The notes: generated by a model not told the origin, from the letters alone. 64,000 nucleotides of DNA from Candidatus Nomurabacteria bacterium RIFCSPLOWO2_01_FULL_39_18 (GCA_001787005.1 MFUV01000006.1:16197-80196), one strand, 5' to 3'; numbered from the stretch's first letter, positions 182 to 26,628 are shown. Translations and numbers: made by a program.

Positions 182-1492
182 ATGCTTAAATCAAATGATG
201 ATAACGACAAAAAGCGTAAAATTATATACCTTGATTACGCATCGAGCGCTTCCTATTTATCTGCGAATCCTGGAGCCATCCATGAATTGGGAGTAAAAGA
301 AAAAAAAAAATTAGAAAATGCAAGGGCAAAAATTGCTAAAATTTTAAACGCGCGCAGAGATGAAATAATTTTTACATCCGGAGCCACAGAGAGCAACAAT
401 TTGGCTATTTTAGGTGTTGTGAATGCTACAAAGGAGAAAGGTTTTTTCAGGTCCTCGGAAAAAATCCCCAGACCATTCAAAAACCTTTCTCCTTTTCCGC
501 ATATTGTGACAACAAATATCGAACATGCATCAGTCCTGGAAGTCTACAAACATCTAGAGAGAACAAAACAAGCGAGGGTGACTTATGTAGAAGTTGAATC
601 GAGTGGAATAGTGAATCCAAAAAAAATAAAAAAAGCTTTAACAAAAGATACAATACTTGTCTCTGTCATGTATGCAAACAACGAGATAGGCACGATTCAG
701 CCGATAGGGGAAATTGCAAAAGAGATTAGGCATTGGAAAAAAGGAAAAAATAGGTTTTTGGAGCACGGATATTTTTCTGCTGAAAAATTCCTCGTGCTCG
801 CGCCGTCGCGCTCCCAAGTCTCCAAAAACCTATTTTTTCCTTTTTTCCATACTGACGCTACCCAAGCAATAAATTATCTACCCATCAATGTTCAAAAATT
901 AGGCGTTGATTTGATGTCTTTTAACGGCGCTAAAATTTATGGACCAAAAGGGGTTGGCGCTTTGTATGTTAAAAAAAACACACCGATCAGTAAGATTATG
1001 TTTGGGGGAGACCAGGAGAAGGGGTTGCGGCCGGGAACAGAAAATGTTATAGGAGTAGCTAATCTGGCTCATTCTCTAGAAATTACAGAGAGAATAAAAG
1101 AAAAAGAAGTAAAACGTCTAAGCAGACTCCGGGATTATTTTTTTATAAGACTTCAAGAAATGTCAAAGACGGTCTTTGACACTCCATTGGTTATAAGTGG
1201 GGATTTAAAAAATAGATTACCAAACAATGTGAACATCACAATACCCGGCATCCCGAGCGATCTTTTAGTTATTGAGCTTTCCGGGAGGGGAATAATGGCT
1301 TCAGCAAAGAGCGCCTGTAAGGCAGGGGATGGCAAGGCTTCCCATGTAATACAAGCGATTCATCCAAAGACAAGCGAAACTGACGGTTCTCTGAGATTTT
1401 CTTTAGGGAGAGAGACAACAAAAAAAGATATTGATTATACGATTAAATCTCTTTCAAAAATCTTATTAAAATTAAAAAAATGGTACAATTAG
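182..1492 (+). CDS. Cysteine desulfurase, a class V aminotransferase (IscS/NifS-like).
   Basis: It has the SGATESNN and SFNGAKIYGPKGVGALYVKK PLP-lysine motifs and GLRPGTENV. It carries an in-frame ~25-aa insert (FLEHGYFSAEKFLVLAPSRSQVSKNLFF) that corresponds to a dispersed repeat element. Confidence 0.8.
   Translation: MLKSNDDNDKKRKIIYLDYASSASYLSANPGAIHELGVKEKKKLENARAKIAKILNARRDEIIFTSGATESNNLAILGVVNATKEKGFFRSSEKIPRPFKNLSPFPHIVTTNIEHASVLEVYKHLERTKQARVTYVEVESSGIVNPKKIKKALTKDTILVSVMYANNEIGTIQPIGEIAKEIRHWKKGKNRFLEHGYFSAEKFLVLAPSRSQVSKNLFFPFFHTDATQAINYLPINVQKLGVDLMSFNGAKIYGPKGVGALYVKKNTPISKIMFGGDQEKGLRPGTENVIGVANLAHSLEITERIKEKEVKRLSRLRDYFFIRLQEMSKTVFDTPLVISGDLKNRLPNNVNITIPGIPSDLLVIELSGRGIMASAKSACKAGDGKASHVIQAIHPKTSETDGSLRFSLGRETTKKDIDYTIKSLSKILLKLKKWYN
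763..838 (+). repeat. Intragenic, in-frame copy of the ~70-nt REP-like palindromic element (family copies at 14092, 15083 and 26558).
   Basis: It shares cgcgccgtcgcgctc and the ggatattttt...aaaaattcc hairpin with the other copies. Confidence 0.6.
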
Positions 1493-1495
1493 ATC

Positions 1496-1795
1496 ATGCT
1501 AGAATCAAATCCAGCTAACAAAAAATGGCAGCTTCGCGAAAAACCAAAACCGATCTCTTATATTTCAGAGAGTAGATTGAATTTTTTACGAGAAAGATTT
1601 AATAGAAGAACTTTTACTGTTAGTGATGCCTATGAAGCTTTATTGGAAATTGAAAAGAGCAGATCTTTTCTCGTTGATGAGCAAGCCATCCGCGCGTTTC
1701 TATCTCGGATGGTGGATATGGGTAGAATAAAGGTAATGACAAATCATGAAAGAAATTCTGAAAATCGTGCGCAAAAAATTTATCAGGTGATTTAA
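1496..1795 (+). CDS. Hypothetical protein.
   Basis: Called from the ORF only; no motif recognised. Confidence 0.35.
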   Translation: MLESNPANKKWQLREKPKPISYISESRLNFLRERFNRRTFTVSDAYEALLEIEKSRSFLVDEQAIRAFLSRMVDMGRIKVMTNHERNSENRAQKIYQVI

Positions 1796-1825
1796 TTTTC
1801 ATTCATGAATTGTTCCAAAAAAACT

Positions 1826-1852
1826 TTGACAAAAATAAAAAAGTGCTATAAT
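1826..1852 (+). promoter_or_regulatory. Sigma-70-like promoter, TTGACA-15nt-TATAAT, upstream of the 1859 ORF and clpB.
   Basis: ttgacaaaaataaaaaagtgctataat lies immediately 5' of the ATG at 1859. The spacer is short at 15 nt. Confidence 0.3.
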
Positions 1853-1858
1853 TAGGGC

Positions 1859-2413
1859 ATGGACATCAAGGATTTAAATAAATCACAACTTATATTGCTG
1901 GCTGTGCTCCTTTCCTTTGTAACTTCTATCGCGACTGGCATCACGACGGTAACACTGATGCAACAAGCGCCGGCGTCTGTAACCGTGCCAATTACTCGTA
2001 TTGTCAGGGAGACTGTTGAAAAAATTGTGCCAGCCAAAACTACTGACAATACTCCAGCTTTATCCAAAGATGAGAAAAAATTGCTTGAGGACCTAAAAGC
2101 CATCAAGCCACTTACGGTCACTTTGCTATTAAAAGGTTTACCTACGGAGACGGGAGAAACTGAAGATAAAATTTTAGGGACAGGATTATTTTTGGGCGAT
2201 AATAAAGTCGTGATAGCATCTATAATTACAGAACCCAAAGAAGGGGAAATTTATGTTGTCAAAAGTGTTTTAGGTGAACAAAAAGTTGCAAAGGTAACGG
2301 TAGAAAAAGATTTTACGATTATTGAATTAATTAAAACTGAAATAGAAACTCTTCCTAACCCAGACCCAAATACAAATACTATCCCAGAAGATAAAACTCC
2401 ACCAGTCCCATAA
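1859..2413 (+). CDS. Hypothetical protein with an N-terminal membrane anchor.
   Basis: There is a hydrophobic segment [24 protein letters not shown]. The overlapping antisense ORF 1852..2238 is judged spurious. Confidence 0.45.
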
Positions 2414-2447
2414 AACTTTCTACTTTTTAACTTTACACCCAACATAT

Positions 2448-25334: not shown

Positions 25335-25688
25335 ATGAGACACAGTAATAATAAAAGAAAATTTGGCAGAGTTAGGAAAGTTAAAGTAGCGCTGATTAAT
25401 TCTTTAGCTTGCAATTTAATTGTGCGTGAAAAAATGAAAACAACCCTACCAAAGGCGCGAGAGATTCGACCTTTTATAGAGAAGCTCATAACTCGTGCGA
25501 AGAAGGGAGATTTAGCTACTCGCCGATTAATGATTTCCAAACTTGGGAGTCGCAGTCGCGAAGTTAAAAAACTTTTCGAAGTTATAGCGCCGAAATATGC
25601 TGATAAAAATGGTGGATATACTAGAATTTTAAAATTAGGAGCAAGAACGACAGATGGGGCACCCATGGCGATAATAGAACTTATATGA
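25335..25688 (+). CDS. rplQ: Ribosomal protein L17.
   Basis: The RHSNNKRKFGRV...GGYTRILKLGARTTDGAPMAIIEL signature is present. Confidence 0.9.
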   Translation: MRHSNNKRKFGRVRKVKVALINSLACNLIVREKMKTTLPKAREIRPFIEKLITRAKKGDLATRRLMISKLGSRSREVKKLFEVIAPKYADKNGGYTRILKLGARTTDGAPMAIIELI

Positions 25689-26053
25689 AAAATATAAAGG
25701 AAACAATTAGCGTAAAGTCGATTGATGCAGAAGGGAGAACCCTAGGCAGAGTAGCCAGCGAGACAGCTGTGTCTTTGATGGGTAAGACAAGGACAAGCTT
25801 CGAACGCAATGTTTATTCAGGTGTTCCGGTGAAAGTTGTGAATGCCTCAAAGCTTGCTATTACCACAAAGAAATTGGCTGAGATATATCATACGAGATAT
25901 TCAGGAATTCCAGGTGGGCTTCGTATTCTGACAGGCAGTCATACCGTGAAGACGATTGGATTGAAAGAATTAATTAGACTGGCAGTCTACCAAATGCTCC
26001 CAGGAAATAAATTACGAAGAAAAATGATGAAAAATTTAAAAATCGAAGATTAA
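25685..26053 (+). CDS. rplM: Ribosomal protein L13.
   Basis: It has RTLGRVASETAVSLMGK...VVNASKLAITTKK...YHTRYSGIPGGL. Confidence 0.85.
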   Translation: MKNIKETISVKSIDAEGRTLGRVASETAVSLMGKTRTSFERNVYSGVPVKVVNASKLAITTKKLAEIYHTRYSGIPGGLRILTGSHTVKTIGLKELIRLAVYQMLPGNKLRRKMMKNLKIED

Positions 26054-26060
26054 AAATACT

Positions 26061-26492
26061 ATGACAAACAATAAAACAAAGTCAAAACCTGCCCATTATA
26101 TAGAAGCCGTAGGAAGACGCAAGACTTCGACTGCCAGAGTGCGTATCAGAGAGTCTAATAAAACAAATTTTATTGTTAATGGAAGAGATGCAAAAGAATA
26201 CTTTAAAACAGAGGAAGAGCGCCATTTGATTCTAGGTCCTATCGCCAAGGGCTTGGGTAAGGGCAAAGCTGATGTGAAATGGAGCGTGGAAGTGCATGTC
26301 CAGGGCGGGGGAGCGCACTCTCAAGCAGAAGCTGTACGCCATGGACTCTCTAGGGCTCTGGTAGCTTCTAATCAAGAACTTCGTAAAGATTTAAAAACTC
26401 TTGGGTACCTAAAACGTGATCCTAGAGCAAAAGAACGTCGCAAATTCGGTCTGAAAAAAGCCCGCAAGGCACCGCAGTGGAGCAAGCGCTAG
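26061..26492 (+). CDS. rpsI: Ribosomal protein S9.
   Basis: GGGAHSQAEAVRHGLSRAL...KRDPRAKERRKFGLKKARKAPQWSKR. Confidence 0.9.
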   Translation: MTNNKTKSKPAHYIEAVGRRKTSTARVRIRESNKTNFIVNGRDAKEYFKTEEERHLILGPIAKGLGKGKADVKWSVEVHVQGGGAHSQAEAVRHGLSRALVASNQELRKDLKTLGYLKRDPRAKERRKFGLKKARKAPQWSKR

Positions 26493-26496
26493 AAAA

Positions 26497-26519
26497 CAGC
26501 CGGCTTGCGCCGGCTTTTT
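26497..26519 (+). terminator. Rho-independent terminator after rpsI, embedded in a larger 44-nt palindrome (26484-26527).
   Basis: The stem agccggc-ttgc-gccggct is followed by ttttt. Confidence 0.6.
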
Positions 26520-26557
26520 CTAGCGCTTGCTCGGCTTTTTTAAATTCAGACATAATC

Positions 26558-26628
26558 TTTTTCCGGTACGGATTTTTCGAAGCTTAAAAAATCCTGAAGT
26601 TTTCGCGCCGTCGCGCTCAAAACCCCTG
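26558..26628 (+). repeat. Intergenic REP-like ~70-nt element upstream of grpE.
   Basis: ttccggtacggatttttcgaagcttaaaaaatcctgaagttttcgcgccgtcgcgctcaaaacccc. The tracked ORF 26527..26778 over it is spurious. Confidence 0.65.

Follow-up and report, generated by a model that had tools for sequence, protein, structure and literature searches.

The analysed stretch of DNA, hereafter the window, comprises 64,000 nucleotides (nt) of Candidatus Nomurabacteria bacterium RIFCSPLOWO2_01_FULL_39_18 (MFUV01000006.1:16197-80196). Its proteins are of the Patescibacteria type (Parcubacteria/Nomurabacteria-like), and one of them shows 100% identity to an entry recorded for this bacterium. It contains the genes for a cysteine desulfurase and for the tRNA 2-thiouridine synthase MnmA, a run of genes (S13-S11-S4-RpoA-L17-L13-S9) that ends with rpsI, and four copies (c1 to c4) of a palindromic repeat, which is the subject of this study (Table 1). 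Each copy consists of a conserved core of 56-68 nt with two hairpins, located at the apex of a long inverted repeat whose arms are specific to that copy. According to open reading frame (ORF) and Pfam assignments, c2 and c4 are intergenic, while c1 and c3 reside within the coding sequences (CDSs) of the desulfurase and of mnmA. A preliminary description of the window had claimed a dispersed palindromic repeat that occurs between genes as well as in frame inside these two genes, and both the spread of the family and the open frames reported below bear this out. The unit proposed there, a hairpin of ~70 nt, has to be redrawn, since the complete hairpins including their arms measure ~90-116 nt.

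The four copies were recovered by several searches of the window. An nhmmer profile matched exactly four places, 762-824(+), 14092-14154(-), 15081-15145(+) and 26565-26627(+), with E ~1e-18 each, the next best match having E=0.15. A covariance model applied with its filters off detected the same four copies only (each E <= 1e-9), and a shared 27-nt pattern, CGGATWTTTNNNNGCTNAAAAAWTCCT, was found four times compared to 0.02 matches expected by chance. The cores belong to two subtypes. Type A, represented by c1 and c3, has the sequence CACGGATATTTTT(C/T)TGCT(G/A)AAAAATTCCTCGT(G/A)CTCGCGCC(A)GTCGCGCTC(C/G)CAAGT, type B, represented by c2 and c4, the sequence TCCGGTACGGATTTTT..GAAGCTTAAAAAATCCTGAAGTTT.CGCGCCGTCGCGCTCAAAACCCCT. 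The consensus quoted previously for all four copies is that of type B. Within the window, the exact motif CGCGCCGTCGCGCTC is restricted to c1 and c4.

Table 1. Repeat copies, host genes, family C inserts and the HUH/Y1 gene in the 64-kb window (positions counted from its first nucleotide; percentages give arm complementarity).
Feature	Position	Strand	Arms	Core	Context
c1, type A	734..849	+	734-763 / 820-849, 30 nt, 30/30 bp, 100%	764-819, 56 nt, CACGGAT...CCCAAGT	inside cysteine desulfurase gene
c2, type B	14065..14184	-	14065-14090 / 14159-14184, 26 nt, 88%	14091-14158, inverted orientation	intergenic, RNase T-like exonuclease gene / mnmA
c3, type A, 57-nt variant with TTGCTA loop	15059..15165	+	15059-15083 / 15141-15165, 25 nt, 92%	15084-15140	inside mnmA
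c4, type B	26551..26639	+	26555-26561 / 26630-26636, short and perfect, extended imperfectly; ~7-12 bp	26562-26629	intergenic, after rpsI, before grpE
Host gene 1, cysteine desulfurase	182..1492	+			Pfam Aminotran_5; 436 aa
Host gene 2, tRNA 2-thiouridine synthase MnmA	14194..15393	+			MnmA domains; 399 aa
Family C insert, desulfurase	423..502	+	423-446 / 479-502, 24 nt, 88%	32 nt, TCAGGTCCTCGGAAAAAATCCCCAGACCATTC	in frame
Family C insert, mnmA	14563..14677	+	14563-14588 / 14652-14677, 26 nt, 85%	63 nt, TCAGGTCCTCGG...CCAGACCATGC	in frame
HUH/Y1 protein, 212 aa	51467..52105	-			Pfam Y1_Tnp, E=6e-8; flanking hairpins 51439-51465 and 52131-52157

The anatomy of the repeat was analyzed on 113 measurable copies (66 of type A, 47 of type B). 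Most cores have a length of 52-60 nt in type A and of 58-73 nt in type B. Each copy has arms of its own sequence, whose median length is 19 bp and which reach up to 54 bp; 30 of the 77 arms of at least 15 bp are perfect. Even the stem directly adjoining the core varies (GGAG, GGGG, AGAG, AATG and others). A consensus fold obtained with 47 type A copies is a three-way junction made up of the private stem (P1), a second helix (P2) with the loop CTGCTG or TTGCTA, and a GC-rich third helix (P3) with the loop C(C)GTCG. Pairing is maintained in 94.5% of the cells of this fold, and 180 cells are changed on both sides, compared to 56 +/- 7 in shuffled alignments, none of which (0/500) reached the observed value, and to 19-47 in slid controls. 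Compensated changes in P2 also exist in copies outside the exact search pattern (GGATAAATTT/AAATTTTCC and GCATAAATTT/AAATTTTGC), and in the enlarged cores that were inspected the additional sequence is placed between P2 and P3 or in P3, leaving the helices intact. In L030 (~3870-4140) and L049 (~565-717; L-numbers designate fetched loci), a module CCTTACAGG(G/A)ACAGTACACCTTT... interrupts the type A core, either in the loop of P3 or between the helices P2 and P3, so that one hairpin element is nested in another. An attempt to deduce the strand of function from wobble pairs was dropped because the signals are conflicting (arms, A:C 50 vs G:T 17; P3, G:T 19 vs A:C 7; P2, A:C 9 vs G:T 1).

The repeat is not confined to the window. 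Its core pattern was detected at at least 119 loci in species-representative genomes, so that the family extends well beyond the four copies described initially. Among the matches listed, the named records are metagenome-assembled genomes of Patescibacteria (Paceibacterota, Nomura-, Taylor-, Yonath-, Wildermuth-, Zambryski-, Vogel-, Yanofsky- and Moranii-bacteria), many bear the record label "uncultured Saccharibacteria", given here as recorded, and the remaining ones are labelled "bacterium" or "uncultured bacterium", apart from one short contig labelled Gammaproteobacteria. The covariance model found 128 copies in 706 kb of matched loci, including variants outside the exact pattern. Viral contigs yielded 0 matches to the core pattern and hence gave no indication of a phage vector. 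No description of such elements in Patescibacteria, also known as the candidate phyla radiation (CPR), was found in the literature searched. These data refute the idea that the similarity is merely local, caused by chance or by gene conversion between two genes of one genome, and we assign to it practically no probability. The sole point in its favour is that both host genes act in the same sulfur-transfer pathway; it is at odds with the loci in other genomes, with the four matches where 0.02 were expected and with orthologous copies in many independent assemblies.

Most copies (~100/113) lie outside long ORFs. They are more frequent between convergent than between divergent genes (24 vs 8 pairs, p=0.007), and the distance that separates them from the upstream stop codon (median 5-26 nt) is shorter than that to the following start codon. 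The orientation relative to co-directional genes is not significantly biased (40 vs 26). The position after stop codons would suit an intrinsic (rho-independent) terminator, and in many type B copies the left arm is rich in A and the right arm in T; the stems, however, are long and AT-rich. The neighbouring ORFs encode housekeeping functions (YidC, MnmA, L7/L12, release factor, Pth, tRNA synthetases, ABC transporter). The preliminary description had applied to the repeat the label of a miniature inverted-repeat transposable element (MITE). In its classical form, such an element is an internally deleted insertion sequence (IS) of the DDE type, moved by a transposase that recognises terminal inverted repeats and makes direct target-site duplications. 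Small size, high copy number, hairpin formation and AT-rich insertion sites agree with this label, which is nevertheless improbable. The arms differ in every copy and thus offer no shared terminal repeat to which a transposase could bind, the conserved sequence is central instead of terminal, and no transposase or other partner gene recurs among the 211 clustered ORFs located within 300 nt of a copy in the fetched 8-kb loci. Two copies in L068, 1.9 kb apart, bracket an ABC transporter gene and no transposase. No flanking direct repeats were conspicuous around the copies, whose arms have ill-defined outer ends, although target-site duplications were not searched for systematically. The analogy to repetitive extragenic palindromic (REP) sequences drawn in the same description is closer than that to MITEs, but the layout is inverted, with a conserved apex and a variable stem.

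A single orthologous site may lack the core, carry it in either orientation, retain only part of it or hold a core of another family instead, all with a homologous stem still in place. This was observed above all in the desulfurase, in the loop between ...IRH(W/Y/F) and FHTDA, for which 80 metagenome loci were fetched and compared together with the window allele (W). All 81 alleles are open, stop-free and in frame across the site and have 36-66 amino acids (aa) between the anchors. An insert is missing in 26 of them (36 aa; 37-66 aa in the others), and the native DNA there is a mini-palindrome of an A-run and a T-run (...AAA AAA ATA TTT TTC). The type A core is present in plus orientation in W, L120/121, L123-125, L150, L159 and L188/191, and inverted in L122, L146 and L165, where it is read as ETWERDGASTRNF..., whereas in L195 it is half deleted. 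The homologous stem (AAAAACAGGAAAA...) encloses other cores of 26, 51, 63 and 66 nt in L133, L158 and L189/190, and just a 3-nt loop in L153, while L132 and L172 possess a different stem with a 42-nt core of a further family, termed C. A similar picture emerged for mnmA. At the c3 site, insert-free alleles comprise 40 aa (IVSQNKNPSNFSLEIKNTNWIS) compared to 66 aa in the window, type A in the STDIFLLKNSS frame is present in 40 of 120 orthologs, and some others hold different cores. The first mnmA site (family C in the window) is occupied by an inverted type A core in L095. Upstream of mnmA, at the c2 site, manual reading of the sequences disclosed an orthologous copy in L021, whose stem is homologous and whose core points the other way. 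Orthologs without inserts thus exist for both host genes. An alignment of desulfurase orthologs (372-478 aa) revealed at least four separate insertion hot spots. Since several of the desulfurase inserts recur at other sites or genes, many element families must be involved. Unrelated in-frame inserts recurring at these hot spots include KVFEWSGRGRDPENRGPEKTLP, FQHPLLGKERVG and KPARNASGIADARPHDSQQRVGQAGG.

All genic copies belong to type A. Manual reading of translations assigned them to the desulfurase gene, to two sites of mnmA, to one and the same site in two orthologs of pheT, to tsaD and to a phosphomutase-like gene, and they are always in frame and free of stop codons. An automatic criterion placed 12 of the 66 type A copies but none of the 47 type B copies in ORFs (p=0.001), and after manual curation the numbers were 7/66 and 0/47 (p=0.04). 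This bias fits the number of stop-free frames, which is five out of six for the type A core and three out of six for type B. The core of c1 is read as EHGYFSAEKFLVLAPSRSQVS and forms part of ...WKKGKNRFLEHGYFSAEKFLVLAPSRSQVSKNLFFPFFH..., that of c3 is read as STDIFLLKNSSYSRQSRSQVS; an example of a predicted peptide across an insert is ...EHGYFSAEKFLVLAPSR.... The preliminary description had stated that both copies are read in the same frame and yield the peptide SRSQVS. The common peptide was confirmed. A shared frame exists only in the 3' third of the core, while the 5' parts are read in different frames (EHGYFSAEKFLVLAP in c1, STDIFLLKNSSYSRQ in c3), which converge at SRSQVS due to a 1-nt difference in the second loop (CGCGCC-A-GTCG).

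The fate of the genic copies can be assessed from the predicted proteins. An AlphaFold model of the desulfurase has a mean predicted local distance difference test score (pLDDT) of 68.8. Residues 87-102 and 190-216, which lie within the two inserts of this enzyme, have pLDDT values <50 and no secondary structure, and they are flanked by well-predicted elements of the fold. In MnmA, Pfam assigns a PRC-barrel domain to aa 222-289 and a C-terminal barrel domain to aa 324-398, and c3 is placed between the two. Together with the universal preservation of the frame, these low-confidence loops and the interdomain position support the view that genic inserts are read through and translated into tolerated loops. 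It is true that a hairpin such as c1, which as a single strand has a folding energy of -55 kcal/mol (z = -11.6) and 30 perfect bp, looks hard to translate within an essential mRNA. One might therefore assume that genic copies are removed or skipped by intron-like excision, by RNase III cutting and ligation or by ribosome bypassing. This is very improbable, as removal would require neither an insert length that is a multiple of three nor the lack of stop codons, both of which hold for all 81 desulfurase alleles in spite of many insert lengths. Moreover, each of the 120 mnmA orthologs has been annotated as one uninterrupted protein that extends across both sites, and type B, with stops in three of six frames, is never genic. 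A search of the whole window with Rfam at gathering score gave 0 matches, and in particular no curated covariance model of a self-splicing intron or self-cleaving ribozyme family matched. Among the candidates that were rejected, ribosomal bypassing in the style of T4 gene 60 lacks a stop codon after the take-off site and all alleles are in frame; the P2 stem of type A (GAGCACGG...CGTGCTC) did not match group II intron domain V, hammerhead or twister by eye, and type B does not possess this stem; and the Rfam matches over 14000-15250 at E <= 10, chiefly to microRNA-precursor models, were far below threshold and judged to be generic hairpins.

Arms and core evolve in different ways. At the desulfurase site the arms are complementary within each allele (W 30/30, L123 27/27, L150 27/27, L122 22/22), although between alleles they differ at roughly 30% of positions (by eye), and one-sided changes of the G-U type number only 0-2 per pair. 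Given the complementarity and the near absence of one-sided changes, copying from arm to arm at the DNA level fits better than selection at the RNA level. The 56-nt core is 82-100% identical between desulfurase alleles (median 92%), compared to 63-88% (median 71%) for the flanking, highly conserved CDS and to 35-72% (median 47%), i.e. near saturation, for its third codon positions. In the comparison of W and L150, the core is identical at 56 of 56 positions, the third positions at 43%. As the reading frame of the core is not the same in all genes, the constraint acts on its nucleotides and not on the peptide.

Instead of being selfish DNA, the core might be a functional module selected by the host. 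It would then be a structured motif, in single-stranded DNA or in RNA, to which a conserved factor binds and which purifying selection keeps even in genes. Such a module might serve as a terminator, stabilise mRNA ends, be a site of processing or be used by a nucleoid or replication protein. This is the main rival of the interpretation given below, and we consider it rather unlikely. Besides the contrast between core and third codon positions, the three helices all covary, and P3 is compensated between orthologs (GCGC/GCGC in W vs GCTC/GAGC in L159; in pheT, GGGC/GCCC in L046 vs GAGC/GCTC in L112). The loops have kept their sequences in many candidate phyla, copies are concentrated near gene 3' ends, and the subtypes are site-specific, which implies long residence. 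On the other hand, both orientations occur at one orthologous site and relative to flanking genes, which makes a strand-specific RNA function unlikely. Furthermore, one and the same stem may hold unrelated, absent or half-deleted cores while the gene is kept, 26 of 81 desulfurase orthologs do without any insert, and neither an Rfam match in the window nor a binding partner was identified.

On balance, the family probably represents non-autonomous palindromic repeats of Parcubacteria-type Patescibacteria, similar to REP sequences and to Rickettsia palindromic elements (RPEs), which reside in hairpin loops, are maintained at the DNA level and are translated when they are genic. Long palindromes may grow from mini-palindromes of A- and T-runs, which are common in this AT-rich genome (Lys/Phe codons, terminators), and could stay perfect through template switching within the hairpin, that is, by copying one arm from the other at the DNA level. 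The cores would be inserted at the apex of hairpins, into their single-stranded loops, and a trans-acting enzyme would probably handle them in the form of single-stranded DNA. An enzyme of the HUH/Y1 type is one candidate for handling the core, but nothing links the RAYT-like (REP-associated tyrosine transposase) gene of the window to the repeat. Recombination across the arms might flip the core. Within genes, selection would remove insertions that are not a multiple of three or not stop-free, and type A would survive there because five of its six frames are open.

Several observations weigh against this interpretation. A near-identical pair of genomes differing by one copy was not found, and movement was not observed. 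All plus-oriented desulfurase alleles with an extracted core have the CTGCTG loop and 56 nt, while the 40 mnmA alleles with a DIFLLKNSS-type peptide all have the TTGCTA loop. Since the subtypes are site-specific across orthologs, the copies appear to be old, vertically inherited and long resident, and not the product of constant random re-insertion. For such old copies a core identity of 82-100% calls for purifying selection or for gene conversion, and a purely selfish element would not account for it. The mismatches in long arms are strand-asymmetric, with the excess of A:C over G:T (50 vs 17) having p=7e-5, and this is not predicted by the model. A connection of the RAYT-like gene with the type A and B cores was rejected, as the hairpin flanking this gene is a different one (window, L200, L201, L203, L205) and has not spread. 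Finally, translation of the genic copies is inferred from open frames only. According to a bolder proposal, the element might be of a kind not described before, which homes to the single-stranded apex of DNA hairpins, or it might be a domesticated apex module bound by a conserved factor of Patescibacteria, for instance the RAYT-like Y1 protein. Either way, purifying selection would act on the nucleotides even within essential protein-coding genes, and arm copying at the DNA level would continually regenerate perfect palindromes of 20-50 bp around the core. This proposal is tentative and we are more inclined to doubt it than to accept it.

In its behaviour the family comes closest to RPEs and to REP sequences and REPINs, failing the structural definitions of both. 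RPEs are small palindromic repeats of a reduced genome, which are found between genes and unusually often in frame in unrelated housekeeping genes (PMC10969869), where they add a peptide that is apparently compatible with the fold of the protein (PMC10969869, on Ogata et al. 2000). The present family is likewise palindromic, intergenic as well as in frame in genes, preserves the frame and adds a predicted peptide. RPEs have a length of ~100-150 bp and a family consensus over their full length. By comparison with their description, to which our comparison is limited, the family studied here conserves only an apex of 56-68 nt on private stems, has cores of either orientation and of different families at a single orthologous site, has a core that evolves more slowly than the host gene, and belongs to a different phylum. 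REP sequences and REPINs are hairpin repeats located mostly near gene 3' ends and thought to be handled as single-stranded DNA by RAYT, a domesticated, single-copy HUH/Y1 enzyme. The present repeat resembles them in being dispersed, mostly extragenic and near gene 3' ends, and the window encodes a distant RAYT-like protein bracketed by inverted hairpins. However, REPINs have conserved arms and a variable spacer, the reverse of what was found here; a conserved GTAG/CTAC foot is missing; and the hairpin of the RAYT-like gene itself is a different one that has not spread.

Other hairpin elements share single traits with the family. The pneumococcal elements SPRITE, BOX and RUP as well as Correia and ERIC elements are stable hairpins at gene ends, with mutual insertion and occasional in-frame genic copies (PMC10969869). 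All three traits recur here as gene-end hairpins, nested elements and in-frame copies. Those families have consensus ends throughout, and for several of them the parent insertion sequences are known. To our knowledge, none of them was described with a conserved apex in copy-specific stems. Precedents for the inferred loop insertion and arm copying are provided by elements that target hairpins and by template switching. IS1397 and ISKpn1 insert into the loops of REP sequences and class C group II introns after terminators, although these elements are autonomous and protein-coding, unlike the present family. Imperfect quasi-palindromes are made perfect by template switching, in which one arm is copied from the other (Ripley; Lovett). 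We know this process as a mechanism of point mutation, not as one that maintains arms of 20-50 bp inside genes. In integron attC sites the outer boxes (R''/L''...L'/R') are conserved and the centre is variable, which is the inverse of the present layout, and an integrase context was not seen in the annotation of the window.

Patescibacteria account for a large part of bacterial diversity that is uncultured, and the variation in length for which their proteins are known is unexplained. In the genes examined, part of this variation comes from hairpin elements read in frame. The anatomy of the elements, with a conserved apex on private stems, a core that flips or is replaced, compensated arms and a core evolving more slowly than the enzyme around it, is unlike that of a textbook REP or MITE. 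It makes two questions directly testable, namely by what means small genomes produce and preserve long perfect palindromes and whether a mobile element can target hairpin loops. In practical terms, the cores inflate and fragment domain matches, as illustrated by the Pfam match of the desulfurase, which is split in two, and the covariance model of the core can serve as a marker for masking in annotation and alignment. Should homing to the hairpin apex or a domesticated module prove true, this would be a new mode of mobile-element targeting and persistence and a source of lineage-specific protein loops across a whole bacterial radiation.

The RAYT-like gene shows features of its own. Its product contains the HUH motif (NHFHV) and the motif YIHLNP, and matched the NCBIfam model "REP-associated tyrosine transposase" with 32.7 bits, below the cutoff of 80. 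Its homologs in the best-matching Patescibacteria clusters are 70-87% identical; a PDB sequence search with the protein gave nothing significant. The gene order dnaB-recR-(one small gene)-Y1-rplU is common to the window, L200 and L201. On either side of the gene there is a perfect hairpin, AAATACACAGGC-NNN-GCCTGTGTATTT (TACACAGGC-NNN-GCCTGTGTA), the two copies being inverted relative to each other. The form TAC..AGG.-NNN-.CCT..GTA is present on both sides in the window and in three of the four other genomes checked (L200, L201, L205), while in L203 only the downstream hairpin was found. In 1.2 Mb of fetched DNA, this hairpin is essentially confined to the flanks of the gene. Judging from these sequences, the gene looks like a domesticated RAYT whose hairpin stayed put, and its link to the type A and B repeat is only a lead. 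A foot "TAC-GGA" shared with the hairpins of some homologs (L203, L205) was too short to count.

The window is rich in further hairpins. With arm seeds of at least 12 perfect bp, 13 hairpins were counted, compared to ~1.2 (maximum 4) in first-order Markov shuffles. Five of these strong hairpins are genic: the desulfurase gene and mnmA contain two apiece, and the fifth lies in recR. In each of the former two genes, the second insert belongs to family C, which has the layout TCAGGTCCTCGG-[variable hairpin]-CCAGACCAT(T/G)C and, like types A and B, forms the apex of a private stem, but with a different core. Family C also occurs at the desulfurase site of L132, L172 and L189/190. A fixed-spacing pattern of this family had no match, which is explained by the varying length of the central hairpin. 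The desulfurase and MnmA are partners in tRNA 2-thiouridine synthesis and each has one type A and one family C insert; this pairing may be a coincidence. In recR (minus strand, 52818-52865) there is an in-frame perfect palindrome with 22-bp arms and a 4-nt loop (...MREARPNANALGLASRN...). It holds AGGCAAGACCT, which is shared with a palindrome at the desulfurase site of L149 and L163 (AACAGGCAAGACCTGTT aaaa AACAGGTCTTGCCTGTT), and these sequences point to a REPIN-like family of palindromes without a core.

Additional intergenic hairpins with arms of 14-32 bp and assorted loops are located at 12574-12662, 23588-23685, 26480-26532, 27287-27333, 29001-29058 and 62726-62796. The one at 26480-26532 lies directly at the stop codon of rpsI, just before c4. 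At 6672-6758, ARAGORN called an 87-nt tRNA-Tyr (GTA) that overlaps the ends of two ORFs, and Rfam at gathering score reported no tRNA anywhere in the 64 kb; the call is either an atypical tRNA or false. Between dnaK and dnaJ, a cluster at 36618-46350 encodes a TraG/TrwB-like coupling-protein ATPase (36618-38768), a DUF87/HerA-like ATPase (44842-46350), an ABC transporter and two large ORFs without a Pfam match, and may be a DNA-transfer or secretion module.

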